Shown here one piece after another: positions 1,299-62,579 of a stretch of 64,000 bases of DNA; position 1 is the first letter of the stretch; every line of letters begins with the position of its first letter. Location of the stretch: positions 37,253-101,252 of IMG/VR virus record IMGVR_UViG_3300036939_000049; one strand, given 5' to 3'. The notes under the pieces are model-generated. The model made no database searches and was not told the origin of the DNA. It saw nothing but the letters and a program-made list of their open reading frames with translations. The translations under genes were made by a program, and so were the position numbers. The stretch comes from a virus.

Positions 1299-4200
1299 AT
1301 GAAACCTCCTCACTTCGCCAAACGCCCAAAACCCCCGCTCCCGTCAGACGCCCCTACACTAGTCACTGCGTTTAGCTGCGGCGGGTTGTTTGATGTTGGT
1401 GCGTGGCATGCTGGGTTTCGACCTGTATTAGCCGTTGAGTTTTACCCAGCAAAAGGCAAGAAAGATGACAAAGTTAAACAGCGCCAGTCCGCCGCTGCGG
1501 CGGATAACTACGAGCGAAATTTAGGTAAGCACGTTGTCCGCAAAACCATTGAAGATGCTGTGCGCGATCGCGTCTTCGCCAATCACATTCAGCAACACGG
1601 AAGACCCAACGCCTTCCACTGTTCCCCCAGTTGCACCATGTTTAGTCAGGGGAATACCAAGGGTGTAGAAGATGAAGGGGATATTAGTGCCGCAATTGCA
1701 GTGACACATGCGATCGCACAGCTGAATTTTCCTGAAATTTTTACCCTGGAAAATGTCGATGCTTATCAAAAGTCAAAATCGTGGGCAATCATTCGCGACT
1801 TTCTCTACGCCAACGGGTACGGCGTATCGGGTGATGTGGTATTTGCTTCGGACTACGGAAATCTTGAGACGGGTGAGGGCGTGCCCCAAGACCGGAAGCG
1901 CTTTATTGTTCGCGCTGTAAAAAACCACTTTGCCCCACCGCTCCCGCCTAGACTTCCTCAGCGGATGGGATGGTTGAACGCGATCGTGGACTTAATTGAG
2001 GATCTACCTGAAGGTGAACTCGCACCGTGGCAACTTCAAAGACTACCAGCGTTGGTCAAGAGTGTACTTGTTGACGCAAAGAATATTCATCCCAACGACA
2101 AAATAACCACTAGAGAATTTGATCAGCCTGCATTTACCGTAACGAGTGACGATCGTTGTAGGATGCAAGCGTATTTGGTTCGCAACGATAACACCAAGCA
2201 GGAGTGGGGAAAAGGTTATCGAGAAGGGGAAGAACCATCGGCTACAGTTACTGCTACTTACGTCCCTTCGGCTGTGTTGCTGAACGGGCAGAACGCTTCT
2301 GGTAAAGAGGTTCCGCACAGACAAGAAGCTGAACCTGCATTCTCTATTACGACAGGAGCGAAGTGGGCATCGGCGTTATTAGTTGAGCGGGCCGGCGCAA
2401 GCGATGCGCGTATCACAGTTCGTACTGCCGAAGAACCAGCCTGGACTCTTCGCTCCTCCATCGGCACTGACCAAGATGGACGCAACCGCAATGAAGTGAT
2501 GAACGTGGTGATGGGGTATCGGGTCAAGCGATTGAATGCTCGTGCGATCGCGCGACTCCAATCTGTACCCGACTGGTATGAGCTGCCCGACCAAATGAAA
2601 GACGCCGGTCCACTACTGGGGAATGGGGTGCCATGCCTACTGGCAGAAGCGATTATGAAATCACTACTACGGTTCGTTCAGAAGTCTGAGAGTTCACTCT
2701 CACTTAAATCTCAGTTAACCCTTAATTCAAGTTGCGCTCGAACTGAACTCGACATTCAGTCCTCTGAAACAGCTCTGAACGGACTCTGCACGCCCAGTGA
2801 AAATTCAGTGTCAGTTAACTCTCAGTTCACTCCTAATTCAGATCGCGGACAAAGTGAGTTCACTCTATTAAAGGCATCGAACTCGACCAGTCCTCAAAAC
2901 GAAACACTGAACGGACTCCGAACGGTTACTGAAAATTTAGCGTCACTTCAAGAGCAATTCAATCCCAGTTCAATCCCAGTTCAGTCTCAGTTCAGTCTCA
3001 GTTTAACTCCGGTTAAATCACGGAAACCTTTTTTGAAGTGGGCGGGTAAAAAGACTTGGGCGATCGCACTTCTCGAAGAACTGTATGCTCCGCACCGACA
3101 TAAACGCTACCGCGATTTAACCTTAGGCTCAGGTGCAATCCCACTTGCACTTAAGCCCAATCGCGCTTACCTCTCGGATAAAAACCCGTTTCTTATCCAG
3201 TTGTGGGAGTGGGTTAAGTCTGACGGAAAGCTTACCCTTGACCTGCGGACGGATAAGGATTACTACTTAGAGTGTCGAGAGCGGTTTAATACTGGCGATC
3301 CGCAGCAAGCGGAGTTACTCTACTACCTCAACCACACCTGCTGGCGAGGGCTGTATCGCTCTAGCAAAGATAAGTTTTTCAATGTACCGTGGGGCGAGTA
3401 CAAAGAATTTCACGGGCAGACCGACCTTACCCATTACAAGCAAGTAATTGGAAACTGGGAGTTTGCAGTTGAATCCTGGGACGAAAGCTTGCGCCACGTC
3501 CAGGATGATGACTTTATCGTTTTTGACCCACCGTACCACTCAGTCAGCGGCAAAGGGTTTACTCAGTACTGTGGTTCATTCACAGAAGCCGACCAAGTAC
3601 TAGCCGCCCAAACTTTATCTGAGTTGGGCGTACCCGTTGTGGCATTCAACGCCGCTACTGACTTCATCCTCGATCTGTATCGAGGTCTAAACTTTGACGT
3701 TCAACTACATGAGGCTCCTCGCATGATTTCTTCTACAGGCGATCGCGCACCTGCGCTTGAAATGGTCGCGACCAAAAATACACAAGAGCAAAAGCTGGTC
3801 TATATTGAGAATTTCCTTGAGTCTAGACAAGCACAACCGGATGATTCCGAACTCATGTACACGAATCGTGTACATGAATCTGAAGCTACTGAGGGTGACT
3901 TAACCTACGATGAGCAACGCGATCGCGCTCACCTCGAACGGAAAGTTGAAGGGGCGTTCTATGAGGCCGGTAAAGCGCTGAAGGAGTTACGTGATCTCAG
4001 GTTGTACCGGACAACGCACAACGACTTTGAAAGTTACTGCTTAGATCGATTTGGCTTTGGTCGCCAGAATGCCCATAAACAAATCAAAGCCGCCGACGTT
4101 TTCGAGATTCTGTCTACGAATCATGTACAGATTTTGCCTTCTTGTGTTGATCAAGCTGCCCCGCTGGCACATGCTGACCTGACGGATGAGCAGCGGATTA

Positions 4201-4775
4201 AGCTGTGGGAAGACTTAACTCAAGATGGAAGACCCCCGAATGGGAAAAAAGTCAGGAATGCGGTGGCTGAGATTTGTGATCGGCAGGCTGCGCGAGGAGA
4301 GTACCATAATCCCTGGCAAGTAGGGGATTTGTGCCAGATTCATAAAAAAGGCGACGGGACTTTAGCCAAATACGACGGAATGTGGGGTATTGTCCGCGAA
4401 GTTAAAACCAGACAGTGTATTGTTAAAGTCTGGGATGGGGAGCTGCTGGTGAAAGCTGAAAATCTGGAACCTCTGGAACTAGGAGAAGAATTTGTTGCGG
4501 TGTGCGATCGCGTCCGATCGCTCATGTCCCGCCACATAGATGGGGACATCACCCTCAAACGTGGTCAGCTTAGATTCCTTGAGGCGCTGGGTGAGCAAGC
4601 TAAGTTTTTTGAGCCTGAAGATGTGGATATGCTTGCCTATATCGAGAACTTAACCGCTAACCACGATGCTTCTTTGAAACAGGCTACTCAGTTGCTGGTT
4701 GAGAACATTGAGGACTTGAGTGAAGTCGATGCGCGATCACTTTACGACGCCCTTCGCACTGTACACGAATTCTGA
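1299..4775 (+). CDS. Fusion of C5-cytosine DNA methyltransferase, Ser-rich linker, Dam-like (D12-class) N6-adenine methyltransferase and C-terminal putative HTH DNA-binding domain
   Basis: C5 motifs FSCGG, SPSC, ENV, QDRKR, GNGVP. Dam-like motifs FLKWAGKK and DPPY. The C-terminal LERKVEGAFYEAGKALKELRDLRLYR...FESYCLDRFG domain resembles a family I recognise from cyanobacterial plasmids. Confidence 0.88.
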   Translation: MKPPHFAKRPKPPLPSDAPTLVTAFSCGGLFDVGAWHAGFRPVLAVEFYPAKGKKDDKVKQRQSAAAADNYERNLGKHVVRKTIEDAVRDRVFANHIQQHGRPNAFHCSPSCTMFSQGNTKGVEDEGDISAAIAVTHAIAQLNFPEIFTLENVDAYQKSKSWAIIRDFLYANGYGVSGDVVFASDYGNLETGEGVPQDRKRFIVRAVKNHFAPPLPPRLPQRMGWLNAIVDLIEDLPEGELAPWQLQRLPALVKSVLVDAKNIHPNDKITTREFDQPAFTVTSDDRCRMQAYLVRNDNTKQEWGKGYREGEEPSATVTATYVPSAVLLNGQNASGKEVPHRQEAEPAFSITTGAKWASALLVERAGASDARITVRTAEEPAWTLRSSIGTDQDGRNRNEVMNVVMGYRVKRLNARAIARLQSVPDWYELPDQMKDAGPLLGNGVPCLLAEAIMKSLLRFVQKSESSLSLKSQLTLNSSCARTELDIQSSETALNGLCTPSENSVSVNSQFTPNSDRGQSEFTLLKASNSTSPQNETLNGLRTVTENLASLQEQFNPSSIPVQSQFSLSLTPVKSRKPFLKWAGKKTWAIALLEELYAPHRHKRYRDLTLGSGAIPLALKPNRAYLSDKNPFLIQLWEWVKSDGKLTLDLRTDKDYYLECRERFNTGDPQQAELLYYLNHTCWRGLYRSSKDKFFNVPWGEYKEFHGQTDLTHYKQVIGNWEFAVESWDESLRHVQDDDFIVFDPPYHSVSGKGFTQYCGSFTEADQVLAAQTLSELGVPVVAFNAATDFILDLYRGLNFDVQLHEAPRMISSTGDRAPALEMVATKNTQEQKLVYIENFLESRQAQPDDSELMYTNRVHESEATEGDLTYDEQRDRAHLERKVEGAFYEAGKALKELRDLRLYRTTHNDFESYCLDRFGFGRQNAHKQIKAADVFEILSTNHVQILPSCVDQAAPLAHADLTDEQRIKLWEDLTQDGRPPNGKKVRNAVAEICDRQAARGEYHNPWQVGDLCQIHKKGDGTLAKYDGMWGIVREVKTRQCIVKVWDGELLVKAENLEPLELGEEFVAVCDRVRSLMSRHIDGDITLKRGQLRFLEALGEQAKFFEPEDVDMLAYIENLTANHDASLKQATQLLVENIEDLSEVDARSLYDALRTVHEF
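2691..3021 (+). repeat. Three clusters of degenerate 11-bp tandem repeats (about AGTTCAnTCTC) in the MTase linker
   Basis: For example 2956-3010: aattcaatccc agttcaatccc agttcagtctc agttcagtctc agtttaactcc. Similar clusters at 2691-2756 and 2802-2867. Confidence 0.8.
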
Positions 4776-4778
4776 TAC

Positions 4779-4811
4779 AAGAAACCCCCTCGATTTTGAG
4801 GGGTTTCTTTT
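4779..4811. terminator. Bidirectional intrinsic terminator
   Basis: aagaaaccccctcgattttgaggggtttctttt between convergent genes. Confidence 0.75.
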
Positions 4812-4850: not shown

Positions 4851-5603
4851 TTACTCTAGAGCCTTCTTGACTTTTTCTCCCGATTCAGAGCAAGCATTGC
4901 GACACGCTCTGAACCCTTGCAAATCATCAATTCGCATCTTCTTTCGTGCCAGCGCTTCAGCTAGGGTGATAGCGGCGTTTTCCACATCATCTAGAGAATC
5001 CCGAAGATTATCTTTAGCTGGAACTTTGCGCTCCAACTTAATTTCCTTGGCTTCGCCACCTAAGACGGGTTTATAAATTTCATTGGTACAGACCCCATAC
5101 TGCCAAGGCTTGTCAACACCTCGATTTTTTAACTCATCGGTTAAATAATTGCGTCCTTCAATCTCCCTTAGCCGAGTTTTAATCCACTCATCCGATTTGC
5201 CCTCTTTCTTCCACTTGGCGATCGCTCGTCCACGCGAACGAGTTATTCCTAGCTCTGGATTGGCGTCTTCTTCAATGCGCTCGGCTAGTGCGCCCAGTGC
5301 CCAAGAGTGAAACTTAGGACTCAGATATTCGGCGTAAGCAAGAGCTAGTTTTGGGATACCAAACGTCCCACCGCCTTTACCCTTGCGGGTTTCATAAATG
5401 TGGGATAGTCCCCCATTTTCATTTTTAAGGACGACTTGCAATTTTTCTGTGTCAGGTAGTCGTAGCCATTGAGCAGGGTTTCTGTTCTCTGGACAACCTT
5501 GTGCTCTCCACATATCGGTAAGACTAATCCATTTATCCGTCAACCGAATATTGATTGGACATTCGTTGTATTCCACTGCTCGAAATTTGGGTATAGTAGA
5601 CAT
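4851..5603 (-). CDS. KilA-N domain protein (phage antirepressor-like)
   Basis: ISLTDMW..P..WLRLP..KGKGGGT..LALAYAEYLSPKFH is a KilA-N signature. The C-terminus (RNYLTD..TNEIY..NLRD) resembles that of 60863-61636. Confidence 0.88.
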   Translation of the reverse strand: MSTIPKFRAVEYNECPINIRLTDKWISLTDMWRAQGCPENRNPAQWLRLPDTEKLQVVLKNENGGLSHIYETRKGKGGGTFGIPKLALAYAEYLSPKFHSWALGALAERIEEDANPELGITRSRGRAIAKWKKEGKSDEWIKTRLREIEGRNYLTDELKNRGVDKPWQYGVCTNEIYKPVLGGEAKEIKLERKVPAKDNLRDSLDDVENAAITLAEALARKKMRIDDLQGFRACRNACSESGEKVKKALE

Positions 5604-10036: not shown

Positions 10037-10324
10037 TTGGTAGTTTTGCAAGAGGTTAGGTCTGTGCGGGTTTATCTCGACATCAGCGGGTATTGGCCAA
10101 AATATGGCGATGGAGAGCCGCGATCGGTTAACTCCGTTCACGAGGCGTTAAAGGGGACGCCCAACGAAATTGGACGGAATACCCTGCGTTTGGCACTAGA
10201 AGGGCGTTTAGACCGTGGACACTTCGCTCATGTGATTAAGTTGCAGCGTGTTGTGTCGTACTGGGTTGGGAGAAAGGTTTCGTTGGAAGAGTTGATGACA
10301 GTAGAAGAGGAGCGGCGCGTGTAA
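10037..10324 (+). CDS. Small putative DNA-binding protein
   Basis: 95 aa with a Cro/XRE-like segment (IGRNTLRLALEG...VSLEELM). The stop codon overlaps a 19-bp motif copy. Confidence 0.55.
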   Translation: MVVLQEVRSVRVYLDISGYWPKYGDGEPRSVNSVHEALKGTPNEIGRNTLRLALEGRLDRGHFAHVIKLQRVVSYWVGRKVSLEELMTVEEERRV

Positions 10325-10604
10325 ACTATTCGTGTACATCAAAAACCTCTGGCTTGGAGCTAGAGGTTTGTTTTTGGGTGGGCGCGATCGCGAATAATGT
10401 AATAATAAAGAAGATCGCGTTACGGAGTTTTTCTCCCTGAATGGCTTCCAGTTAGACAAAAGTTGAAGAATGAATGGGTGTCAATGCCCTGGAAAACTCA
10501 TTGGAATTTGGTCTAGGTAGCGCGATTACCGCGTGTAAACGTTTCGTGCACAAAAAACCCCTGGCTTGGAGCTAGGGGTTTGTTTTTGGGTGGGCGCGAT
10601 CGCG
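10317..10604 (+). repeat. About 75-bp direct repeat (10317-10392 and 10531-10604) made of 19-bp motif, hairpin terminator and HIP1
   Basis: gcgtgtaaac..ttcgtg.aca..aaaaacc.ctggcttggagctag.ggtttgtttttgggtgggcgcgatcgcg occurs twice. Confidence 0.85.
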
Positions 10605-12761: not shown

Positions 12762-14045
12762 ATGCGAGTTTTCGTTCTAGATAAAAACCTAATTCCTCTT
12801 GACCCTTGCCATCCAGCACGGGCGAGAGAACTACTACAAAAGGGGAGGGCTAAAGTATTCAAGCGATATCCATTCACTATTGTTCTACAAGATAGAACTG
12901 CGGAGGATTCGGTTACACATCCACATCGAGTCAAAATTGACCCAGGTAGCAAAGTTACAGGGTTTGCGGTTGTTCAAGAAGAAACAGGGCGAGTAACAAA
13001 TGCTTTAGAAGTTGCCCATCGGGGACAGCAAATCAAGGACTCCCTTGAGTCTCGACGCGCTTTAAGAAGAGGTCGGCGCAATCGAAAAACTCGATACCGC
13101 AAGCCTCGCTTCTTGAACAGAACTCGTAAAGCTGGATGGCTTCCACCTTCTCTTGAGAGTCGTATTACCAACATTGAGACTTGGGTAAAGAGACTCAGAA
13201 AACTTTGCCCAGTTACTGCAATTTCTCAGGAATTGGTAAGGTTTGATCTACAGAAAATAGAGAATCCAGAAATTAGTGGGGTTGAGTATCAAAGAGGCGA
13301 ACTGTTTGGCTTCGAGGTTAAGGAATATTTATTAGCTAAATGGAACAGGAAATGCGCCTATTGTGGAGTTGAGAACGTTCCTTTCGAGATTGAACATATC
13401 CTTGCCAAAAGCAAAGGGGGTTCAAACCGAGTTAGTAACCTCTGCCTAAGCTGTCATTCCTGCAACCAATCCAAGGGTAACAAGCCTGTTGAGGAATTCC
13501 TCAAGAAAAAGCCTGAAGTTCTCAAGAGGGTATTAGCTCAAGCCAAAGCACCCCTTAAAGATGCTGCTGCGGTTAACGCAACTCGTTGGGAACTGTATAG
13601 CCGCCTTCAATCTACGGGTTTACCTGTAGAGGTTGGGTCAGGCGGTCGAACAAAGTTTAACCGTAAAACCAGGGGGATTGAGAAACATCACTGGACAGAT
13701 GCCGCTTGTGTTGGAGCATCAACTCCAGAACAACTTCTGCTTAAGGGTGTCAAACCTCTGATTGTTAAAGCTAAAGGTCACGGAACTAGGCAACGCTGTC
13801 GCCCTGATAAGTTTGGTTTTCCAAAAGCGCATGCGCCCAGCGCTAAGTATTTTCAGGGCTTCCAAACCGGAGACATCGTTAAAGCCAACATCCCGTCTGG
13901 AAAATTTGCAGGTAATTATGTTGGCAGAGTTGCTATTCGATTTAGACCAAGTTTCGTCTTGCAACTGCCTACTCAAAAATTTGATGTACACCCAAAATAC
14001 TTGAAAACTATCCACAAAGCGGACGGCTATGAATATCAATTCTGA
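12762..14045 (+). CDS. iscB: RNA-guided endonuclease IscB
   Basis: PLDPCHPARAR (PLMP), IDPGSK (RuvC-I), Arg-rich bridge helix, ELVRFD, CAYC..EHI HNH, HWTDAA. Confidence 0.95.
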   Translation: MRVFVLDKNLIPLDPCHPARARELLQKGRAKVFKRYPFTIVLQDRTAEDSVTHPHRVKIDPGSKVTGFAVVQEETGRVTNALEVAHRGQQIKDSLESRRALRRGRRNRKTRYRKPRFLNRTRKAGWLPPSLESRITNIETWVKRLRKLCPVTAISQELVRFDLQKIENPEISGVEYQRGELFGFEVKEYLLAKWNRKCAYCGVENVPFEIEHILAKSKGGSNRVSNLCLSCHSCNQSKGNKPVEEFLKKKPEVLKRVLAQAKAPLKDAAAVNATRWELYSRLQSTGLPVEVGSGGRTKFNRKTRGIEKHHWTDAACVGASTPEQLLLKGVKPLIVKAKGHGTRQRCRPDKFGFPKAHAPSAKYFQGFQTGDIVKANIPSGKFAGNYVGRVAIRFRPSFVLQLPTQKFDVHPKYLKTIHKADGYEYQF

Positions 14046-15961: not shown

Positions 15962-17245
15962 ATGCGCGTTTTCGTTCTAGACAAAAACTTAAAGCCTCTT
16001 GACCCTTGCCATCCTGCACGGGCAAGAGAACTACTACAAAAAAGGAGGGCGAAAGTATTCAAGCGCTATCCATTCACCATTGTTTTGCAAGATAGAACCG
16101 TTGAGGATTCGGTTACACATCCTCACCGAATCAAAATTGACCCCGGTAGCAAAATCACGGGCTTTGCTGTTGTTCAAGAGAAGACAGGTCGCGTCACAAG
16201 CGCCATTGAAGTCTCGCACCGAGGGCTGCAAATCAAGGATGCTCTTGAGTCACGCAGGGCATTACGAAGGGGTCGGCGTAACCGTAAAACCCGTTACCGT
16301 AAACCTCGTTTCTTGAACAGAACTCGTAAACAGGGATGGCTTCCACCTTCTTTTGAAAGTCGAATAGCCAATATTGAGACTTGGGTGCGGAGGATCAGAA
16401 AACTCTGTCCAATTTCAGACATCTCTCAAGAACTGGTAAGGTTTGACCTTCAACAGATGGAAAATCCTGAAATATCAGGAGTTGAGTATCAAAGAGGGGA
16501 GTTATTCGGATTTGAAGTTAAGGAGTACTTACTTCAAAAATGGGGTAGAAAATGTGCCTACTGCGGCATTGAAAACGTTCCGTTCGAGATTGAACATATC
16601 CTCGCCAAAAGCAAAGGTGGCTCTAATAGAGTTAGCAATCTCTGTCTGAGTTGTCATTCATGCAACCAAGCCAAAGGCAACAAGCCTGTTGAGGAATTCC
16701 TCAAGAAAAAACCTGAAGTTCTCAAACAGATTTTAGCTCAAGCCAAAGCACCTCTCAAAGATGCTGCGGCTGTCAATGCGACCCGATGGGAACTGTACAG
16801 ACGACTGCAATCAACTGGGTTGCCTGTAGAAGTCGGGTCTGGCGGTCGGACAAAGTTCAATCGTAAAACCAGAGGGATTGAAAAAGCTCACTGGACTGAT
16901 GCAGCTTGTGTAGGTGCGTCTACTCCAGGGCGATTACTTCTTAATGGGGTAAAACCACTGAATGTCAAAGCCAAAGGGCATGGAAGAAGGCAGCGTTGCG
17001 GTACAGACAAATTTGGATTCCCAGTCCGTCATGCTCCAAGTCAGAAACTTTTCATGGGATTCCAGACAGGTGACTTGGTTAAAGCTGATGTTCTGGCTGG
17101 AAAGTATGCAGGGAGCTATACGGGTCGAATTGCAATCCGATTCAAACCAAGTTTCAAGTTAACAACTGGAGGAAAGAGTTTTGACGTGCATCCGAAATAT
17201 TTGAAGACCATCCATAAGGCTGATGGCTACGAATATGCATCCTAA
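15962..17245 (+). CDS. iscB: RNA-guided endonuclease IscB
   Basis: Same motifs and length (427 aa) as 12762-14045. Confidence 0.95.
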   Translation: MRVFVLDKNLKPLDPCHPARARELLQKRRAKVFKRYPFTIVLQDRTVEDSVTHPHRIKIDPGSKITGFAVVQEKTGRVTSAIEVSHRGLQIKDALESRRALRRGRRNRKTRYRKPRFLNRTRKQGWLPPSFESRIANIETWVRRIRKLCPISDISQELVRFDLQQMENPEISGVEYQRGELFGFEVKEYLLQKWGRKCAYCGIENVPFEIEHILAKSKGGSNRVSNLCLSCHSCNQAKGNKPVEEFLKKKPEVLKQILAQAKAPLKDAAAVNATRWELYRRLQSTGLPVEVGSGGRTKFNRKTRGIEKAHWTDAACVGASTPGRLLLNGVKPLNVKAKGHGRRQRCGTDKFGFPVRHAPSQKLFMGFQTGDLVKADVLAGKYAGSYTGRIAIRFKPSFKLTTGGKSFDVHPKYLKTIHKADGYEYAS

Positions 17246-17403: not shown

Positions 17404-18507
17404 ATGGTAAAAAGAGGACCAAAGATAAACCTCCGCGAAGCTTGGGAGGATGACGAAGAAGAGGTTCTTCCTGAACCTGAACTGGAGCTTGATGAGGTCG
17501 AATCAGCTCCAGATATTGAAGAAGTCCAGCAAGTTGAAGAAGAGGAAATTGTAGATGAGCGCGATCGCGCCAACCCAGAACCGGACGAACCTCAACAAGA
17601 GCCTGAGCAACCAAAGGCTGAGGAAGTCAAAAAAAAAGATGAGCTGCTTGTCCGTCACATAATCCCAATCGACCCGGAACTGGCGGAGCGAATGTGGGGG
17701 CGACCGTTAACCCCAGAGCAGCGTCAGCAACTTGAAGAAGACTGGGCGTTAGGCTTCCGACAATTAACGGATGAAGAGAGACGCTTCTGCGGTATCTCAA
17801 ACAACCCGGAAACTTATTCTCGGATGGAGGCTCTTTCAAAGAATTACTTGAAGGTATCTTTCCAGCAAGGTAAAGACGACTTAATTGTCTTAGAGTTAGC
17901 CAGCAAACAATACGGCTGGCCGGAGGGCTACCTCCGTGATGAGAACGGACGATTTACCGATCGCTGTGTTTTTGAACTCATGCAGCTTCGGCGTCGCGTT
18001 CGAGAATGGATACTTCCTGAAGAACCTGATGGGAGCATAGCTCTCGAAAAATATAAGCGAGGAGACTTAGCCGCCAAGCGCGGGATTCGGATAAAAAACC
18101 CACGTTACAGCCAACGGTTTGATTATCTAGATGCCCTGTTTGAACGGGCTAAACGCTGGAGGGCATGGAAAGAGGAACGCGATCGCGCAGTCCCTGTTGT
18201 TGTTGATGTTGGCGAAGCCGTGTTTGGGGAATTAGTTCTAACTCCTCAGACTAGAAGTCAACACGAAGCTCAACGCAGTGTCGCCCTTCAAAAGCTGGAA
18301 GAAGCAGAGCACTTACTGTGTTCTGTCCCGGAGCAGTTGAAAGACTCCATCTGGGAAACAGTCCGCCCATTATGGGCAAACGTTGGACTTGAATTGCGAG
18401 CCAACGGTATCGCATATGCGACTCAAATAATGCAAACAGGAGAAATCAATGAAAGCACTGAATCCGATCAGCCAAATGAACAACACCCAGACAGAGAATC
18501 CTATTGA
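17404..18507 (+). CDS. Hypothetical protein with acidic N-terminus, in an operon with the actin-like ATPase
   Basis: 367-aa ORF overlapping the next gene. Confidence 0.7.
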   Translation: MVKRGPKINLREAWEDDEEEVLPEPELELDEVESAPDIEEVQQVEEEEIVDERDRANPEPDEPQQEPEQPKAEEVKKKDELLVRHIIPIDPELAERMWGRPLTPEQRQQLEEDWALGFRQLTDEERRFCGISNNPETYSRMEALSKNYLKVSFQQGKDDLIVLELASKQYGWPEGYLRDENGRFTDRCVFELMQLRRRVREWILPEEPDGSIALEKYKRGDLAAKRGIRIKNPRYSQRFDYLDALFERAKRWRAWKEERDRAVPVVVDVGEAVFGELVLTPQTRSQHEAQRSVALQKLEEAEHLLCSVPEQLKDSIWETVRPLWANVGLELRANGIAYATQIMQTGEINESTESDQPNEQHPDRESY

Positions 18508-19651
18508 GATACTGGGGCGTCCAAACGACCAGACTTGGATTTTCCCAGAGCCTATTAATTTGCCAGAAATCCCTGTTTTGATGTTGGATACAGGAAAATC
18601 TCCTGACAACGGCAACAAAATTGCAATGTTTCGTGATTCACGAACGCTTAATATCAAAAAGGTTCCTTGCAACCTAAACAAGAAACCAGGGCATATTGTT
18701 CAGTCAGACCCCTCCGATTTCTTTGCAGAACAATACAGCGATCCGGATGCATCCTTCTTGGAATTTGAGATGGATGGAGTTGTTTACACAGCTGGTAACC
18801 TTGCCGCTGACGAAAATGCTGGTGTAGGACTAGGTTTGGATAAGTTCGTTGACATAAAACCGCGTGTCACCTCGGCATTGGCTTTGTTTGGCATCACTGG
18901 ACCATTCGCGTTGTGTTTGACAGCAACCTACGAAAATCTGGAGCACTTTCAATATCAGTCTCGCCAGATGGAGAACGCCCTGTTGGGTGGGTTTAATTGG
19001 ACGACAATTTCTGGTTCTTTTTCTGCTCAAATCTTCAAGCAAGATACTGGGGATGACAATCCCGCAAAGAAAGGGTTGTTTACTATTCCTGAAAGTTCTG
19101 AATCCTGGCAGTTCCCTAAGCTTTTTGCTCAGGACAAAAAGCTTTCACTAGAAGGTAAACCTAACGTAACGGTTGAGCTTGGTTTTCAGACAACGAACTA
19201 TATGTTTCGTAAAGCAGGCGCGACGGCACCAGCGCCTGCTTTGTCTGGAGCCGATAAAGAACTGGGCGGAAATCTTTTTTACGCTGATATTGCTCAGCGA
19301 ATTGGTGCTAATAACCCCCAATCTCCGGAATTAATTAACGCTATTAATCGAGGTGACGCTAGTATTTACTTGCCAGAGCTGGGACAAAAGATAGCATTGC
19401 TCTCTGTAGTTAATGCGGCAAAGCCTAGCTTTGAAACTCGCTACATTGATAGCATTCTCAAAAATATGAGGAGCGAGTACAGAATCGTAACGCTATCTGG
19501 TGGAATGGTTTACTTGTTCGGACCCGCAATCAAGCAAGCTTTAGAGCAAAAAGGGTTTGAGGTGCGATTAATTCCGCAGTTTCCTGAATTAGCTCAAATC
19601 GTGTCCATGAGCGTCATGGCTGTTAATCGCTTCTATCGGATGTTTAACTAG
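18449..19651 (+). CDS. Actin-like ATPase (ParM/StbA-type), divergent
   Basis: Phosphate-1 LMLDTG, IPES, phosphate-2 VELGFQTTN, adenosine motif LSGG. Confidence 0.7.
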   Translation: MKALNPISQMNNTQTENPIEILGRPNDQTWIFPEPINLPEIPVLMLDTGKSPDNGNKIAMFRDSRTLNIKKVPCNLNKKPGHIVQSDPSDFFAEQYSDPDASFLEFEMDGVVYTAGNLAADENAGVGLGLDKFVDIKPRVTSALALFGITGPFALCLTATYENLEHFQYQSRQMENALLGGFNWTTISGSFSAQIFKQDTGDDNPAKKGLFTIPESSESWQFPKLFAQDKKLSLEGKPNVTVELGFQTTNYMFRKAGATAPAPALSGADKELGGNLFYADIAQRIGANNPQSPELINAINRGDASIYLPELGQKIALLSVVNAAKPSFETRYIDSILKNMRSEYRIVTLSGGMVYLFGPAIKQALEQKGFEVRLIPQFPELAQIVSMSVMAVNRFYRMFN

Positions 19652-39427: not shown

Positions 39428-39428
39428 A

Positions 39429-44662: not shown

Positions 44663-45235
44663 TTGTGGTTTAAACCAATACCATCAATACACAAAGGAAA
44701 CAAAATGAATTCGTTGCAAATACAACAAGAATTAAAGATTCGACAAAACCTCCGCGCTATGCCGTATCAGCGCTTCCTTATCACTTCTTTTTGGAGATCC
44801 GTCAGAGAGATTGCACTAGAAAGAGCTAAACACAGGTGTCAGTTATGCAATAGTGCATCTGAGTTGCAGGTGCATCACAGAACCTACAAAAACAGAGGAT
44901 GGGAAGATCAACACTTAGACGATTTAACAGTTTTATGCGCTAATTGCCATAAGAAACATCATGATATTGTAGCTAATCCCAAGTTAGCCGACAAAGAGGC
45001 TCAAGATCAAAAAGGATGGCGGGAGCCGCATTTTAGTAGCGGGGATGTTACCATGTGCCGTCCAATGACTTCAAATGAGTTAAGACTTTTTAGGGTATAT
45101 CGAGCACATCAAGGTTTAGGCGCTCCAGAACCTTATGAATTAACCCCAGCTTTTCACGCTTATTGGGATTCATTAGAACAACGACAAGCAAAACAGGGCA
45201 TCAAATCCTGGGAGGAGCTTGAATACGGACTGTGA
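44663..45235 (+). CDS. HNH endonuclease
   Basis: CQLC..LQVHH..Y..L.VLCANCH..HH; lies next to the terminase. Confidence 0.85.
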   Translation: MWFKPIPSIHKGNKMNSLQIQQELKIRQNLRAMPYQRFLITSFWRSVREIALERAKHRCQLCNSASELQVHHRTYKNRGWEDQHLDDLTVLCANCHKKHHDIVANPKLADKEAQDQKGWREPHFSSGDVTMCRPMTSNELRLFRVYRAHQGLGAPEPYELTPAFHAYWDSLEQRQAKQGIKSWEELEYGL

Positions 45236-45345
45236 AGCGAACTCTATTTCGCTGACGTTATTCACTGGATGCGCGATCGCGCTCCCAAATGTACACGAAT
45301 AGTTTACACATCAAAAACCCCCGTCTCATGACAGGGGTTTATTTT

Positions 45346-45415: not shown

Positions 45416-45499
45416 AAATCAACAACCCGTTACATGTACTTGTTTTGATCGAGTTTTTTTGATGAACAATTTCCATGTACACGATTCGTGTACATCAAC

Positions 45500-47101
45500 T
45501 CAAAAATACCCTCGAATATCCCTAGCTGAACTTCGTCTATCCTCAGACGTTCGTTCTTGCCGACGTCGTGCAGCTCCAAAGAAATCTCTCACGTTCTCAT
45601 CTTTGGTATCTTGCTTTAAGACTTTGCCAGCTTTCTTACGCGCCGCATAATTTGCCAACACCAACGCGATCGCGGCATCACCGTGACGCTTCCCACCATC
45701 TTTACCTTTATATCGACTTCGCTCTGGAACTTTGGGTACACCATTATGTTCTTCAATAGCGGCATGATCGGTTTTTATGTCTTCGTCATATGGCATCCGC
45801 AGACGCTCATCTTCCAACGCTTTTTTGTAATCTGGCATGGCTTCCAAATACCAAGGCTGTGTCGGCATCACTTTCTCAATGCGACTCGCGCCATACTTCG
45901 TTTCAGCAAACTCTGCCAAAGCCGTCCCATTCCCCCTAGCGTCACTAGCCCCACCACAGAAATTAGGGAGGTGGTCGATTACGCCGTACAGTATTTGCTC
46001 TTGCCGTTTGATTGGTACATTCCGCAGTTCTATAAGCAAGGGACAGTAGAGTCTTACCTTCCCTTCAATAGTCACACCACTCCAATCATCTTCGAGTAGT
46101 AACGCGATCGCGCTGATATCTCCCGTGCGTCCAAAGTCCATACCGTAATAAGACTTCTGGTGACGAGGTAAGGCGTTAATTAATGGGTAAATTTTGTCTT
46201 TGAGCCATTCCTGAATTTCTGTTAACTGTACGGGTTGAGACTTGATATTAAATTCATCAGGTAATGCTAGTCGCACCACCGAGTAGCGCCTATCCATTCG
46301 TGCTTCTACCAGTAATGGTGGAATGTAAGCTCCGCCACCTGCTTTTGGATTACAGAACAACTCCTCATCAGCGTCATCCCCATACTGATCGATCATGTCC
46401 TGCCGCCATTTCTCTTGCCCTTTAACAGACCAGTCTTTCCCAGTCATTAAACAAATACGCCTATACAACCCAGCCGCGATCGCGTCATCAAACGTGACTT
46501 TATGCAATGAGTACGGACGCTTCCCAGCCTTAACTTCTTCAATGAGCTGGTTAAACGCATTAGTTACACCGTCATGTGTTGAAATAATGTGTACCGAGCC
46601 GCCCCACATTAAGAGCGCGATCGCGGCTTTAAGTAACTCTAGTGGGTTTGGGTGGAAGGCAAATTCATCTAAGATGACTCGTCCTTTTTTCCCTCGCAAG
46701 TTAGTAGGGCGTGAAGTTAACCCAGTTACTCGATACCCTGATGCCATCTTGATGCGGTAAGCCAGAATATCGCGTTCTGATTGAATTACCTCTTCTGGAA
46801 ATACTACACCTTCCGATACCAGCTCCTGCTTACTAACAGCTGTCACCTCAGTTGCCACTTCTTGATACTGCTTTACCCAGAAAGTGCAATCCTGCATAAA
46901 CTCCAACGCACCTTCTTCGTTCGCGCCAATGTACCAAGTGTCTTTTCCATTTCGTCCCGATGTTGCTGCCATCAACACTGAGTCTGCCGCCTCAGCCCAT
47001 GTAATCCCAATCTGGCGGCTTTTTTCAATAATCTTGACGTCGCTTTTGTCTAATATCCATTGTTGCTGGTATGAAAGCAATACCGCTTTAGTCTCTGTCA
47101 T
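45500..47101 (-). CDS. terL: Terminase large subunit (Mu gp28-like)
   Basis: KSRQIGITW Walker A, VILDEFAF Walker B, IISTH, GMDFGRTGD nuclease, HGDAAIA. Confidence 0.93.
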   Translation of the reverse strand: MTETKAVLLSYQQQWILDKSDVKIIEKSRQIGITWAEAADSVLMAATSGRNGKDTWYIGANEEGALEFMQDCTFWVKQYQEVATEVTAVSKQELVSEGVVFPEEVIQSERDILAYRIKMASGYRVTGLTSRPTNLRGKKGRVILDEFAFHPNPLELLKAAIALLMWGGSVHIISTHDGVTNAFNQLIEEVKAGKRPYSLHKVTFDDAIAAGLYRRICLMTGKDWSVKGQEKWRQDMIDQYGDDADEELFCNPKAGGGAYIPPLLVEARMDRRYSVVRLALPDEFNIKSQPVQLTEIQEWLKDKIYPLINALPRHQKSYYGMDFGRTGDISAIALLLEDDWSGVTIEGKVRLYCPLLIELRNVPIKRQEQILYGVIDHLPNFCGGASDARGNGTALAEFAETKYGASRIEKVMPTQPWYLEAMPDYKKALEDERLRMPYDEDIKTDHAAIEEHNGVPKVPERSRYKGKDGGKRHGDAAIALVLANYAARKKAGKVLKQDTKDENVRDFFGAARRRQERTSEDRRSSARDIRGYF

Positions 47102-47136
47102 ATATAATAGATACAGTGTATTGAGTTAGATAATGG

Positions 47137-47415
47137 ATGAACACGAAAGGGAAAGCAGCATTGAAGCGGCTGCGAGAATTTCTCAATGATAAGCCAGAGA
47201 CACAAGTAATAGGTGTGGGGACGGTAGCTAAGATTTTAGGAGTAACACGCGATCGCGCTCACAAATTCATCCGGTCTAATCCATCACGTCTTAAAGCTGA
47301 GTTAGGACTTGGCTTAAATCCCAGTTACGAAATTAAAGTGGAGGACTTGCGGGAGTTTATTGTGAACGACTACGCGATCGCGGTTCCGGGTAGACCAAAG
47401 CGAGAGGTGTCATGA
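47137..47415 (+). CDS. Excisionase-like HTH protein
   Basis: VAKILGVTRDRAHKFIR...GRPK. Confidence 0.65.
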   Translation: MNTKGKAALKRLREFLNDKPETQVIGVGTVAKILGVTRDRAHKFIRSNPSRLKAELGLGLNPSYEIKVEDLREFIVNDYAIAVPGRPKREVS

Positions 47416-47936: not shown

Positions 47937-48247
47937 CTATTAGATTTTTCGTTACACCAGCCAAGCTTTTGGATTTAACTGACCAAGGATCTGCTTATTC
48001 CCCAGTTGTTGATGCGGTTGTTTGTAAAGCATTTTATTTAGCTGTACAGGCTGTTGCTTCAAAGTTTGACCTTGACTACATGACGGCAAGAGCAAAGCTT
48101 GTTGAGCTGTACAAATACCAGCAAGTATTTAGTTTTTATGGTATTTGCTCTCATGCGCTGGAAGGTTCTGGGTACGTTTCAGAGGAGTTAACTAAATTCG
48201 CTTTACGCCAACGCGATTACACCCTCAACTCAAATGTACATGAATAG
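47933..48247 (+). CDS. Hypothetical protein
   Basis: ATGA coupling; ends on a 19-bp motif copy. Confidence 0.6.
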   Translation: MTIRFFVTPAKLLDLTDQGSAYSPVVDAVVCKAFYLAVQAVASKFDLDYMTARAKLVELYKYQQVFSFYGICSHALEGSGYVSEELTKFALRQRDYTLNSNVHE

Positions 48248-48256
48248 TTTACATTG

Positions 48257-51351: not shown

Positions 51352-51673
51352 ACCAGCTTCCGTAATGGTTGTTGGCTTCTTGTGCTTAGCTTAGGTAGTC
51401 TTAACAGGTCTTATGTGATCGCGAAGCGCTGCTACGAAGCGCAGATCGCGCTCCTAAATCTCACGTACACGAATCGTGTACATCATCGAGCATCAGCCAC
51501 ATTAGCATAGAGCGCTCTCAGTTGTTGTAGTGCCCTTACTCGACTTCTGGGAGACTTGCTCATGTGCCTACCGTTGACACTCACTATGTAGAACCGACTA
51601 CGCTTTCCTTTCCTAACTCGATGCAAATGGTACGGCATAGCAAGACACGGGATTTATTATAATTCTAACCTGT

Positions 51674-51994: not shown

Positions 51995-52053
51995 GTCAAC
52001 GACCCGCCGCTAACCCTGTCGGGTATAACGGGAGTCCCCTTGCCGCATTTAAG
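51995..52053 (+). mobile_element. 59-bp minimal IS200/IS605 derivative (PATE-like) made of IscB element ends
   Basis: gtcaacgacccgccgctaacc (start of element 2) joined to ct.tcgggtataacgggagtccccttgccgcattt.ag (end of element 1), followed by ATGG. Confidence 0.85.
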
Positions 52054-52287
52054 ATGGAGAAAAGGTGCCAGTCTCTTGTCGTCGTCAATATGGCATGGGC
52101 ATGGGGAGCGAATGGAATGCCAAGTTGATGGCGTAACCCAATCACGAAGTGCCGCTGCAAAGCGCGATCGCGCCCTAACTTTTCCGCCGCTGTAAACTTT
52201 TCGTGTACATCTTCCTTCCCTCAGTTAGCGTCCGACCCGCTACTGGGGGTTTTACTTTACCCTGTTCAAACTAAAGCTTTTTCAATC

Positions 52288-53367
52288 ATGGCAACAACCA
52301 AGAAAACAACAATCGCAAAAGCTAAAGATCCATACGTTCACGAGTTTCCCGCCATGCGTGGTGTTATGGCTGGGCGTGAGTTTTACTCCTGCATTGTCCC
52401 TATTCGAGTCCTCACTAAAATCTTTCTGTTCGATGAAGAAGAAGTTCCGGTTGAACTTCGGGTGCAGCGCACGTTAAACCCAAAGCGTGCTGATGACATC
52501 CGTGACTATGTAATCGATAACCCTAAAGATTACGTTCTACCTTCTCTCACGGCATCCGTTGACGGAGAGCTTGAATTTGTCCCAATCTCTGATGAGGGGG
52601 ACTTGAGAAAATTGGGCGTACTGCGTGTCGCGATCGCGTCCAGATTTATTCTCAACGATGGTCAGCACAGAAAGGCTGGACTGACCAAGGCCCTGCAAGA
52701 AAACCCACAGCTAGCCTATGAGTCGGTCAATGTTCTGTTCTTTCTAGATATCGGGTTGAAGCGATGCCAGCAAATCTTTTCCGATATCAATCGGAACATG
52801 AAAATCCCGGATGCGGCAATCAACATTACCTTCGATCATCGTGACGCGATCGCGGTAATGACTCGTGAAGTTATCAAAGAAATACCGTTCCTACGCCAGT
52901 TTGTTCAACAAGCGGGAGGAACCATTAAGGCTAAGAGTAACAAGCTTTTGGTAGTAACTTGGGTGTACAAGGCTAATCAACGAATCAGTGCGGTGCTGGC
53001 ATCAGGTCAGCAGGAGTTTTGCTTGAAATTCTGGGAAGCGCTGATTGCTAATACACCCAAGTGGCAAGAGGTGCTAAATCAGGAGATATCGGCAGAGGTT
53101 CTGCGACGTGATTACATTTGTTGTACCGCGATCGCGATTGAAGCTTTCTCTCATCTAGGTGTAGCACTAGCTCAAAATCCAACCTATATCGAACATCCAG
53201 AAAAGATGCTAGATAAATTAGCATCCCTTGCGACCGTTGATTGGTGGAAGCAAGAAAAAACTTGGTTGGGTATGGTTGTAGATACCAATGGACGAATGCT
53301 GACCAAGAAAGAGAACATCCAGCTACTTATTCAGCATCTATCACAAGTTACAGGAATACGCGCATGA
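52288..53367 (+). CDS. dndB: DndB-family DGQHR domain protein
   Basis: FPAMRG..REFY, QRTLN..R, YV.PSLTASVD, NDGQHR, QQIFSDIN, FDHRD. Confidence 0.85.
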   Translation: MATTKKTTIAKAKDPYVHEFPAMRGVMAGREFYSCIVPIRVLTKIFLFDEEEVPVELRVQRTLNPKRADDIRDYVIDNPKDYVLPSLTASVDGELEFVPISDEGDLRKLGVLRVAIASRFILNDGQHRKAGLTKALQENPQLAYESVNVLFFLDIGLKRCQQIFSDINRNMKIPDAAINITFDHRDAIAVMTREVIKEIPFLRQFVQQAGGTIKAKSNKLLVVTWVYKANQRISAVLASGQQEFCLKFWEALIANTPKWQEVLNQEISAEVLRRDYICCTAIAIEAFSHLGVALAQNPTYIEHPEKMLDKLASLATVDWWKQEKTWLGMVVDTNGRMLTKKENIQLLIQHLSQVTGIRA

Positions 53368-54520: not shown

Positions 54521-54650
54521 CTCAACAAATAACACTACGAAAAACCTCGCTATTCACCTAACTCATGCGAATAGTTTACATCGCGATCACGTTGTCGTAG
54601 AAAACCCGTGATCGCGTTTTGTTGACCCTAGATGGCGCAACTAATTTATA

Positions 54651-56014: not shown

Positions 56015-56071
56015 CTTGACTACAATGTACACGAAAAGTTTACACCGTGATCGCGTTCCATATCTTGACTA

Positions 56072-60024: not shown

Positions 60025-60188
60025 TGCTGTTTTGCTTTTTTGACGCGATCGCGGCTTATCAAAAAGCTGTCAATCACATCAAGCAAAACTTTAGCATGTA
60101 CACGATTCGTGTACATGACCCAAGCCCGTAGCACCGCCCCTAGGCTACGGGCATTACTGGGCGGACGAAAAAAAGTTTGAGGTAAGCA

Positions 60189-60862: not shown

Positions 60863-61636
60863 ATGAATAATGATACAGTACGTGCGGCACGAGCAACCAT
60901 AAAGCTCGGCGGTATCCCACTTGACGTTTTTCAGTTGCCTAATGGCGAATATCGACTAAGCCAGTCGCAGGTGTTGGAGACGATAGATGCCCCAAATAAC
61001 TGGATTACAAGATTGCCGCATTCAGAGGGTACTGAAAGAGTAAAATACTTACAGGGTAAAGGTTTCACTGGTTTACAGCAAAAGATTGAATTTAAGGAAG
61101 AAGGCGCGAGAGGAACCAAGTCCGCCAAAACCCTAAGCATTCCAGACGCGGTATTGGTTTGGCGGTGGTTCGACAAGCAAGGTAACAACAAAGCTGAGGC
61201 AATAATCGACGCCTGTGCTATTGAGTCCATTGAACGGCGTGCTGACAGCGCATTCGGTGTTCAACGGGATGAAGCTGATTACCAAGCCAAGATGAAAGCA
61301 CGGATAGATGGTAAGGTCGTGCGTCAATCGCTAACTGATGCTATCAAAGATTACATCTTGCGACATCCCGAACTGTCGAGTAATGACAAGAAATGGCTTT
61401 ATAAAAACTGCTCAGACAAAACCAACAAAATCATACTTGGCAAAATTGCCAAGAAAGCCGCAGAGGAACTGGGCTGTGAACATGCACAGTTACGGGATTA
61501 CTTGCAAGCCGAACAGCTAATTCGGATTAGCTATCTGGAGGATGTAACCGTGAAGCTTATCCACCTTCAAGACATTCACCCTCTACAAGCTGTTATCCAA
61601 GCCGCTAATCGGTTATTACTCGACTTTGAAGAGTAA
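60863..61636 (+). CDS. Antirepressor-like DNA-binding protein
   Basis: LDVFQLPNGEYRLSQ N-terminus; the C-terminus resembles that of the KilA-N protein (RQSLTD..LRD). Confidence 0.65.
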   Translation: MNNDTVRAARATIKLGGIPLDVFQLPNGEYRLSQSQVLETIDAPNNWITRLPHSEGTERVKYLQGKGFTGLQQKIEFKEEGARGTKSAKTLSIPDAVLVWRWFDKQGNNKAEAIIDACAIESIERRADSAFGVQRDEADYQAKMKARIDGKVVRQSLTDAIKDYILRHPELSSNDKKWLYKNCSDKTNKIILGKIAKKAAEELGCEHAQLRDYLQAEQLIRISYLEDVTVKLIHLQDIHPLQAVIQAANRLLLDFEE

Positions 61637-61713: not shown

Positions 61714-61950
61714 ATGCCTTACCTAACTCAACACGAAGTCAAGCTATTGGAGCTTTTACAAACTGGTTGTTCGGCATATTCAGTTAATCCCCAAGATGCA
61801 CTACCTTTGAGGTCACTTCAACAGAAAAAGTTAATTCTTATCTGGGACTCATCCCATTGGGACGAAGTAGGTTTTGACGTAACCTATCAAACCTATGGCT
61901 GTTACCCGAATTATGTAGAAGACGGAGAACAGTATCGAATTATCGATTAG
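61714..61950 (+). CDS. Hypothetical protein
   Basis: 78-aa ORF. Confidence 0.55.
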   Translation: MPYLTQHEVKLLELLQTGCSAYSVNPQDALPLRSLQQKKLILIWDSSHWDEVGFDVTYQTYGCYPNYVEDGEQYRIID

Positions 61951-62126
61951 GTAATAAGCCCAGCGCGATCTGCACCTCGCGATCGCGTCTACGACCGGAA
62001 ATAACAAACCAAAAGCATCTCGTCAAGAGGAAAGAAACTATTGTCGAGATGCTGGACAGATTGTTTTAGAAGGGTTTACGCGATCACACGGTACTACACA
62101 AAAACACATCACAAGGTAATCAAATC

Positions 62127-62540
62127 ATGCAACCCAATTCATGCGATGCCGTAAAAGGCGGAGAATCGCCCATCATTCAAGCTGTAGTACTAGGAATCGC
62201 CTCCCAGTGTGAACATCCAGAGCACAGGCAATTCGCATTAGACATGGCGGCAGCAGGTATTGCTACAGCAATAGGAAGTCATCGATTGTACTGGCACGGA
62301 CCTGCGGCGCATGGTGAAGACGTTTCTGAAATCATGTCTCAAACGCGAGTACGATGCATTTGGGATGAGTCCGGCAAAGGTGTTGTTGTGTATCCGCGTG
62401 TGTATACACCAAACAGCCTAATGTTGATGCTAGAAAATCTAGAGTCTGTAGAAATTGGGATTGGATTGTACTGGCATCAAGGACAACCTCTGCACGCGAT
62501 CGCAAAGAATGCCTTAGAGCAAATCAAAGAAATTCTGTAA
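62127..62540 (+). CDS. Hypothetical protein
   Basis: Stop codon lies within a 19-bp motif copy. Confidence 0.65.
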   Translation: MQPNSCDAVKGGESPIIQAVVLGIASQCEHPEHRQFALDMAAAGIATAIGSHRLYWHGPAAHGEDVSEIMSQTRVRCIWDESGKGVVVYPRVYTPNSLMLMLENLESVEIGIGLYWHQGQPLHAIAKNALEQIKEIL

Positions 62541-62579
62541 ACGTTTCGTGTACAAAAACAACCACTACAGCCCCTGCAA

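Follow-up and report, generated by a model that had tools for sequence, protein, structure and literature searches.

Several unrelated groups of phages carry dispersed dyad repeats, and most of these, the repeats of the Cluster O mycobacteriophages included, have no known reader or function. The family described here, a 19-bp two-armed site, belongs to a phage represented by the 101,252-bp IMG/VR virus record IMGVR_UViG_3300036939_000049, which is classed as linear and about 80% complete. The window is the whole 64,000-nucleotide stretch of DNA that was analysed (bases 37,253–101,252 of that record), and coordinates refer to it unless the record or another contig is named. The repeats may be lineage-specific sites at which a two-fold symmetric protein of the phage docks to act on transcription running from one gene block to the next, an explanation preferred here with slightly less than even confidence. 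Protein binding, a dimeric reader and a transcriptional role are what we infer from the sequence.

Repetitive extragenic palindromic (REP) elements are hairpins found in enterobacterial and pseudomonad chromosomes together with a Y1 transposase (RAYT). The P1 C1 operators and the 17-bp conserved inverted repeats of phiC31 are dispersed sites of one repressor, and on RK2 about a dozen dispersed O_B operators serve KorB, a dimeric regulator with a ParB fold. Cluster O mycobacteriophages such as Corndog carry the 17-bp dyad TGTTCGG-NNN-CCGAACA in more than 30 copies per genome, proposed to be dimer binding sites of unknown function (PMC4351075). The stoperators of Cluster A mycobacteriophages silence genes by blocking elongation through a repressor of the L5 gp71 type (PMC9283540). 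In SPbeta, the dispersed conserved SPBRE sites are read by a single repressor, MrpR, which has a tyrosine-recombinase fold (PMC10516654), and the linear phage-plasmid N15 has dispersed SopB centromeres, IR1-4 (PMC7205306). DndB is a ParB-like, ATP-dependent repressor that recognises 18-bp TACG-N10-CGTA palindromes in Salmonella (PMC4507180; bioRxiv 10.1101/2025.10.10.680097).

The 19-bp site family and its counterpart in a related phage

A search with TGTACACGAWTCGTGTACA at up to three mismatches gave 19 matches in the window and none in 100 shuffles, and the arm TCGTGTACA has 25 occurrences where 0.27 would be expected. Scanned in full with TGTAMACKWWTCGTGTACA, the record yielded 25 full 19-bp dyad sites, 20 in the window and five upstream of it, in addition to three partial copies. 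The dispersed palindromic tag proposed by the original prediction, made from the window sequence, is therefore real, although three of its 23 start positions (4760, 44426 and 54562) mark partial copies and only the other 20 are full sites. Its descriptions of a nearly invariant arm, fixed arm spacing and copies in both orientations agree with the scans and arm tables, and its two-fold symmetry is supported by the dyad structure. Some copies are indeed paired, 104–255 bp apart, and the whole-record scan reproduces both the empty zone at 10.6–30.3 kb and the highest density at 38.9–62.5 kb.

The sites are assembled from two discrete arm alleles, A (TGTACACGA) and B (TGTAAAC-KW). Nine or ten sites have the form A-A', the perfect palindrome TGTACACGA-W-TCGTGTACA, which is often lengthened by CA...TG to 23–25 bp; fifteen are B-A' hybrids, TGTAAAC-[T/G][A/T]-T-TCGTGTACA (in short, TGTAAAC-KW-T-TCGTGTACA). 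No B-B' site occurs in the phage record. Each position of the A arm is invariant in 28–29 of 29 copies, while in the B arm TGTAAAC is kept in 14/14 and variation is confined to inner positions 8–9. Apart from one duplicated site-plus-terminator unit and HIP1-rich stretches, the flanks show no extended similarity.

The sites could in principle act as hairpins in RNA or single-stranded DNA, whether as terminators, REP-like stabilisers of mRNA 3' ends, processing sites or targets of a hairpin-reading enzyme. Perfect copies with their flanks do fold well (-14.2 kcal/mol, z = -4.65), and many sites resemble REP elements in lying just past stop codons or in convergent gaps. The fifteen hybrids, however, fold at -2.6 to -3.2 kcal/mol, the same as shuffles, and their asymmetry is conserved without compensating changes, so that the feature common to all sites is a duplex sequence at fixed spacing rather than a hairpin. 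No U-tract or T-run follows the sites, which means that the architecture of an intrinsic terminator is not present; proximity to terminators does not exceed chance, the arms of the related phage described below are AT-rich, and the record gave no match to a Y1 (HUH, RAYT-type) transposase (PF01797). A hairpin function is accordingly very improbable.

With open reading frames (ORFs) of at least 80 aa taken as coding, 21/25 sites are mostly non-coding, although non-coding DNA makes up 14% of the record (binomial p ~1e-14). Many occupy gaps of 9–40 nt and touch a stop codon. By gap class, sites are found in 6–7 of 12 convergent, 12 of 81 co-directional and none of 13 divergent gaps, and between 38.9 and 62.5 kb they divide the DNA into blocks of 1–4 kb. 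Only the sites at 3856 and 4111 are clearly intragenic, both in a gene for a 1158-aa methyltransferase. The boundary gaps, the contact with stop codons and the lack of divergent-gap sites in this phage together suggest an action on transcription passing between blocks, not a centromere.

In the proposed mechanism, a dimeric phage-encoded protein would bind the double-stranded 19-bp sites (up to 25 bp with flanks), each made of two 7–9-bp arms at fixed spacing. The bound protein would then act on transcription running between gene blocks by silencing, roadblock or insulation, perhaps during prophage maintenance, with blocking of elongation, as at stoperators, as the favoured silencing mechanism.

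Two relatives in IMG/VR, G403 and G404, were reached through homologues of the portal protein. G403 (48.5 kb, 56% complete) has a portal 64%, head genes 54–67%, a large terminase (TerL) 67% and a MuF-like protein 56% identical to those of this phage. It carries 14 copies of a different palindrome, TGTAAACT-WWW-AGTTTACA (B-B'; pattern TGTAAACTWWWAGTTTACA), in the same 19-bp frame and with its own flanks ATC...GAT, and three further copies that are hybrids with a TGTACA arm. As many as 13/14 of its sites are intergenic, with non-coding DNA at 10% of the contig. Both phages have sites at three junctions: immediately ahead of the gene after the portal; downstream of the giant MuF-like gene, where a site pair is found; and 12 nt before the ATG of a 64-aa Cys-rich ORF. 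At the third junction the A-A' and B-B' sites align column for column, and the non-coding DNA around them is unrelated between the two phages. The sequence-distinct palindrome that the original prediction had suggested looking for in related elements is thus found in G403, and partly at the same junctions. Retention of position together with a genome-wide change of sequence is the pattern expected when a site and its reader evolve together, and the A-A' and B-A' forms here, set against B-B' in G403, make it appear that the two have drifted in concert. By this comparison, the site system is inherited and kept in place, with its sequence changing across the whole genome at once.

The motif appears private to this lineage. 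Among one genome each of 185,579 species, no multi-copy genome was found for the degenerate 19-mer; its 88 loci, with at most one site per genome, are by our own estimate at or below chance. In the viral collection, the exact perfect form had no matches and the hybrid form three single matches. The metagenome collection yielded 13 unrelated single-copy contigs and none with several sites, two of them being local tandem arrays without similarity to the phage. The G403-type motif was likewise not found in several copies in any other IMG/VR contig. As far as these collections reach, no host-like multi-copy genome exists, and the genome, viral and metagenome scans bear out the earlier view of an element-specific motif rather than a host repeat. 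Relatives reached through TerL (G101, G084) or PolA (G402) lack a dispersed palindrome and have no more than one or a few genes in common with this phage; further portal homologues are 98% (a 98-kb European Nucleotide Archive (ENA) contig), 65% (a 110-kb Joint Genome Institute contig) and 64% (a 45-kb ENA contig) identical.

The same scans bear on whether the phage simply uses boxes of a host transcription factor of the NtcA/CRP, LexA or RpaB type. By inspection, the outer TGTA...TACA is similar to the NtcA box TGTA-N8-TACA, as GTTTACA is to an HLR1 half-site. The spacing is N11 and not N8, though, the arms are inverted and not direct as in HLR1, no genome holds more than one exact degenerate 19-mer, and the arm is a different one in the relative, as would suit a reader specific to the phage. 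Use of a host factor is therefore a very slight possibility.

Individual sites, gene boundaries and the recombination alternative

The 23 positions in the window are given below; palindromic copies and the degenerate copy at 4111 have no strand.
3856–3874, no strand: A-A' perfect palindrome, 25 bp with flanks, in frame where the C-terminal domain of the 1158-aa methyltransferase ORF starts
4111–4129, no strand: degenerate copy with 3 mismatches, inside the 1158-aa methyltransferase ORF
4760–4768, minus: single A arm (partial), at the stop of the methyltransferase ORF, adjoining a terminator-like hairpin
10320–10338, plus: B-A' hybrid in a ~70-bp unit with a downstream terminator; the unit is repeated at 10534
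10534–10552, plus: B-A' hybrid, 1 mismatch, in the second copy of the ~70-bp site-plus-terminator unit
30384–30402, minus: hybrid (A-B' on the plus strand), left half of an inverted pair downstream of the giant MuF-like gene
30594–30612, plus: B-A' hybrid, right half of the inverted pair; G403 has a site pair at the orthologous junction
38954–38972, no strand: A-A' perfect palindrome at the end of ORF 38658–38984, convergent junction
39058–39076, plus: B-A' hybrid, 1 mismatch, from the record scan
40977–40995, no strand: A-A' perfect palindrome, bidirectional terminator hairpin directly after
41547–41565, plus: B-A' hybrid, 1 mismatch, 9 nt past the stop of ORF 41082–41537
41701–41719, no strand: A-A' perfect palindrome, 54 nt downstream of the protelomerase stop
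43001–43019, no strand: A-A' perfect palindrome, 12 nt before the ATG of the 64-aa Cys-rich ORF; the G403 B-B' site is in exact register
44426–44444, plus: single A arm (partial) within another palindrome (22 bp, centre TGTACA) at the 5' end of a histidine-kinase gene
45290–45308, minus: hybrid (A-B' on the plus strand) by a bidirectional terminator, 54 nt after an HNH gene
45476–45494, no strand: A-A' perfect palindrome, 5 nt past the stop of the large terminase gene
48235–48253, minus: hybrid, 1 mismatch, filling a 9-nt convergent gap before a TerS-like gene
51464–51482, no strand: A-A' palindrome, 1 mismatch, 15 nt from a 33-bp community repeat and outside that repeat
52191–52209, plus: B-A' hybrid, 78 nt upstream of a DndB-like gene
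54562–54580, minus: decayed copy, B arm and centre kept, A arm lost, 5 mismatches
56026–56044, minus: hybrid between PAPS-reductase-like and methyltransferase genes
60097–60115, no strand: A-A' perfect palindrome in a co-directional gap
62536–62554, plus: B-A' hybrid overlapping the stop of ORF 62127–62540, terminator-like hairpin after

In the part of the record that precedes the window, an inverted hybrid pair with B arms inward flanks an HNH_3 gene and a small ORF (record 27069–27861), the same geometry as in the pair 30384/30594. Both genes for XRE-type helix-turn-helix (HTH) proteins (record 13278–13685 and 27849–28082) have a site at the stop codon. Some contigs from the source metagenomes show apparent extra sites at 44352 and 38 nt before 43001.

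A further repeat adjoins four of the sites, which are not part of it. This HIP1-flanked element of about 33 bp (core CGAAGYGC..CTGCRAAGCGC) lies at 51417–51449 and 52022–52057, with related copies near 38954 and 41701. In three biocrust metagenomes it reaches about 20 times the depth of its surroundings, and its flanks vary by contig, which identifies it as a repeat abundant in the community. A few copies occur in 14/401 sampled cyanobacterial genomes.

The intragenic sites lie in an ORF (1299–4775, plus strand) that joins a C5-cytosine and a D12-class N6-adenine DNA methyltransferase to a 306-aa C-terminal domain without a family match. This domain starts at an in-frame ATG within site 3856 and ends at a half-site; framed in this way, it looks like a formerly separate gene fused across the site. 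Site 3856 may thus be the trace of a gene fusion over a once intergenic site.

Several observations weigh against the preferred docking-site explanation. Arm positions 5, 8 and 9 are completely linked (C with GA in 29/29 A arms) and eight copies are identical across all 19 bp, so that copy-and-paste spread or gene conversion would also fit. Several sites seem, to the eye, to adjoin terminator hairpins, but the idea that the sites back up intrinsic terminators fails in a permutation test, where 6/25 lie near terminators against 4.3 expected at random intergenic positions (P = 0.25). G404 (portal 54% identical) has no dispersed repeat in the available half of its genome; what looked like a repeat there is a coding array of tandem 15-bp units, probably a pentapeptide-repeat gene, rather than a dispersed site. 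Hybrid sites are oriented with respect to transcription at only ~11 to 4, the TTT/AAA centre in G403 is unrelated to gene direction, and 3/14 G403 sites lie in divergent gaps. The two G403 features give no support to a polar, stoperator-like mechanism; taken together, the symmetry of the sites, the ~11:4 orientation and the three divergent-gap sites in G403 fit a symmetric roadblock, insulator or repressor better than a polar stoperator.

The linked A arm and the many identical copies lead to another explanation, in which boundary repeats are spread or kept by recombination, as homology linkers, as core sites of a tyrosine recombinase around exchangeable cassettes or as a selfish palindrome, with any binding secondary. 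The modular layout agrees with this: the 38.9–62.5 kb region is cut into 1–4-kb modules, and in G403 nearly every gap at 39.8–44.2 kb carries a site while the intervening genes differ from those of this phage. A tyrosine recombinase is encoded inside the site-rich region of both phages, and the small Xer-like recombinase of this phage has retained its catalytic residues R, H-x-x-R, H and Y. A 9-7-9 core site (9-bp arms, 7-bp spacer) is one possible reading of the 25-bp form, and the variable positions then fall in the spacer. In addition, one site lies in frame at the methyltransferase domain boundary, a protelomerase without its usual N-terminus stands beside site 43001, and deletions via the Cluster O repeats have been reported (PMC4351075).

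Population variants argue against recombination at the sites. Variants were read from contigs of three biocrust metagenomes, and among the matches listed the two clear presence/absence variants end 18–343 nt from sites, not at them. At 39420–40939, some contigs lack an integrase and HNH block of 1520 bp, and at 44623–45271 some have 31 nt in place of an HNH gene; both appear to be presence/absence polymorphisms typical of homing endonuclease genes. The missing Y1 transposase also counts against spread of the RAYT type. Moreover, the sites at collinear head-gene junctions keep their position while their sequence shifts in step with the other sites of the genome, and 25 active recombination sites in both orientations would scramble the genome. 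Spread or maintenance by recombination is consequently unlikely, though a real possibility.

Three other ideas were rejected. The order in which the orientations follow one another along the genome disagrees with a crossover model, in which hybrids are junctions between DNA of type A and of type B. A promoter reading starts from the resemblance of the GTTTACA arm to a -35 box, yet there is no -10 element at a constant distance. A restriction or methylation target left by avoidance is not indicated, because TGTACA outside the sites is neither under- nor over-represented (20 against 25.5 expected).

Gene content, protelomerase and candidate readers

DNA of the record matches almost completely in one biocrust metagenome run, with small shares in two others. 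A cyanobacterial host is indicated by the 131 HIP1 octamers of the record. The collections searched contained no cultured relative; for the portal, the only matches there were Pseudanabaena phages at 24% identity, with no plasmid among them. Gene calls with Pfam and PHROGs identified head and packaging genes (a Mu-type portal, a MuF-like protein of 1920 aa, TerL and a TerS-like protein), a protelomerase catalytic domain and the small Xer-like tyrosine recombinase. Also encoded are a CHASE3 histidine kinase and a REC-FHA protein, the fused C5 and N6 DNA methyltransferase, a DndB-like protein, a PAPS-reductase-like protein and an Eco57I-like methyltransferase, several HNH proteins and the two XRE-type HTH proteins.

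Two genes are of particular interest in relation to the sites:
52288–53367, plus: DndB-like gene (ParB-fold family), at most a candidate reader
42791–42985, minus: 64-aa Cys-rich ORF, candidate reader or regulated gene, with a site in front of it in both phages

The protelomerase (41774–42754, minus strand) has 326 aa compared with 403–410 aa in about 100 homologues and lacks their usual N-terminal 81 residues. The label "phage-plasmid" depends on this gene, which is itself without that segment. The ORF upstream of it is not the missing N-terminus but the independent 64-aa Cys-rich protein, which has five invariant Cys, is the best-conserved protein shared with G403 (77%) and belongs to a family with only three other members in 5.8 billion proteins. 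It has no match in Pfam or PHROGs, and its AlphaFold model was too poor for use (pLDDT, the predicted local distance difference test score, 47.5).

The protelomerase was considered as a reader of the 19-bp sites, which would then be its tel/tos target. Their odd length, central W and 25 copies speak against this, and a better candidate exists. A unique perfect 26-bp palindrome without a spacer, ATTTTTGCTGATTAATCAGCAAAAAT, occupies 30482–30507, midway (92 and 99 nt) in the inverted pair 30384/30594. T-runs precede this stem on both strands, so it is not a terminator. Lying 11 kb from the protelomerase gene, the palindrome may be the site at which that enzyme resolves telomeres.

Gene content offers as candidate readers of the 19-bp sites the HTH proteins, the DndB-like protein, the Xer-like recombinase (39429–40100) and the Cys-rich ORF; a regulator (60863–61636), a KilA-N protein (4851–5603) and the C-terminal domain of the methyltransferase (3855–4775) are further candidates. 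The DndB-like protein is assigned to the DndB family at E = 2.8e-94 and has a ParB fold. It gives substance to a further explanation, in which the sites load or mark a replicon-wide protein, for example the DndB-like protein in the manner of KorB on O_B or an adaptor of a proposed actin-like segregation system, for partition, distant silencing or self-recognition of a linear plasmid prophage. In favour are the protelomerase catalytic domain and DndB-family protein encoded in the same genome, and the site 78 nt upstream of the dndB-like gene. Palindromes of 18 bp are read by DndB, described as a ParB-like repressor (PMC4507180; bioRxiv 10.1101/2025.10.10.680097), and four dispersed inverted repeats serve N15 as SopB centromeres (PMC7205306).

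The record itself, about 80% complete, argues the other way. It gave no match to ParB_N (PF02195), for which control genomes match, or to the ParA-type AAA_31 (PF13614), for which all 14 control genomes match; StbA/ParM (PF06406) was not found either, but the control genomes likewise gave none. By inspection, the arms differ from the parS consensus. The complete 200-kb cyanophage G402 encodes DndB and has no dispersed palindrome, whereas the motif-bearing G403 contig (56% complete) has no DndB. Because a terminator-like hairpin follows the site before dndB, this site seems to close the preceding unit. Unlike the present sites, which strictly avoid coding DNA, parS, matS, Noc and SlmA sites tolerate it. 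The role in partition, loading or self-recognition suggested by the original prediction is thus left unsupported, with none of the three families found and the sites almost only intergenic, at gene-block boundaries. Clamp loading is still conceivable because a ParB-fold DndB-like protein is encoded, but a replicon-wide loading or marking function is improbable.

A bolder picture would combine several of these elements. The sites would be loading or roadblock sites of the NTP-dependent ParB-fold DndB-like protein (52288–53367) or another reader, forming a genome-wide switchboard that insulates or silences modules of a linear, hairpin-ended plasmid prophage in a biocrust cyanobacterium. Cyanobacteria are not known to have Rho, so that site-specific roadblocks could take the place of factor-dependent termination. 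The A and B alleles would then record a change of specificity caught midway, with B-A' sites as intermediates. This picture is speculative and deserves little credence as a whole.

The CHASE3 histidine kinase (43027–44478, minus strand) and the REC-FHA protein (record 19875–20657, minus strand, in the lysis region) are encoded 60 kb apart; carried by the phage, they may make up a two-component pair that lacks a DNA-binding output. The record contains at least six HNH-type genes, including two 427-aa RRXRR-HNH endonuclease paralogues (12762–14045 and 15962–17245) that lie 1.9 kb apart in the site-free zone; the ORFs at 17404–19651 have no Pfam match. The site-rich region of G403 includes genes for TnpB (IS605 OrfB/Cas12f-like) and a GNAT-DUF6610 fusion (45777–47252 of G403; L150:5777-7252). 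Ten 6-bp palindromes (ACGCGT, CCCGGG, CCGCGG, CTCGAG, CTGCAG, GAGCTC, GGATCC, GGTACC, GTCGAC and TTCGAA) have no copies in the 101 kb of the whole record, where 3–22 of each are expected; GGCC occurs at 0.12 of expectation and CGATCG is enriched. Such extreme palindrome avoidance suggests a host with many restriction systems.

Comparison with known dispersed-site systems

Like these sites, REP elements are palindromes outside genes that occur in many near-identical copies, downstream of stop codons and within convergent gaps. The differences are that 60% of the sites here cannot fold, that no Y1 transposase was found in the record and that no host copies were found in the collections searched.

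The large temperate phages with one repressor acting on about 10–20 sites over the genome (SPBRE/MrpR in SPbeta, C1 in P1, and phiC31) offer a second parallel, and a small tyrosine recombinase, the fold of MrpR, is also encoded here. Those sites lie in promoter regions, while here none of 13 divergent gaps has one, and the recombinase of this phage, unlike MrpR, keeps all catalytic residues. KorB and DndB are similar in pairing palindromic 13–18-bp sites with a dimeric ParB-fold protein, and a DndB-family protein is present in this phage; however, DndB sites are known only in its own promoter, and no canonical ParB_N was found here. N15 is likewise a protelomerase-type phage with inverted repeats dispersed over its genome, but it has four sites rather than 25 and possesses SopA and SopB, neither of which was found here. 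The strong intergenic and boundary placement in this phage is also not a centromere trait.

Stoperators resemble the sites in distribution. More than 20 near-identical sites in short intergenic gaps across the genome are found in both cases, and in Cluster A mycobacteriophages they are genome-specific and co-evolve with their reader. Stoperators are, on the other hand, asymmetric 13-mers, bound by a monomer and strictly oriented with transcription, whereas the present sites are dyad-symmetric, with an orientation bias of ~11:4 in this phage and none in G403.

The closest known case, by analogy of architecture, appears to be the 17-bp dyad repeat of Cluster O. Both families consist of two 7-bp inverted arms at fixed spacing that start with TGT and end with ACA, and a dispersed dyad in at least 20–30 copies is present here too, a likeness of architecture only. 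The central triplet of the Cluster O repeat is mostly TTT/AAA without a tie to the direction of transcription, exactly as in G403; its copies are densest in one genome arm, and recombination between them has been seen (PMC4351075). The two families differ in sequence, host and phage type, this phage having Mu-like head genes and a protelomerase. About one third of the Cluster O sites are intragenic, compared with 21/25 and 13/14 intergenic sites in the two phages studied here, and the two discrete arm alleles with hybrid sites are a further difference.

Judged by these analogies, the site family is not a new kind of system but belongs to a known and poorly understood kind. It is nevertheless a useful case, with two arm alleles at the same junctions, hybrids within one genome and nearly pure intergenic placement. 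Together these properties offer a direct route to the reader, as the protein that changes along with the site, and to the question whether sites of this sort insulate or silence gene blocks, and the family would be the first such network described for a protelomerase-carrying cyanobacterial phage.

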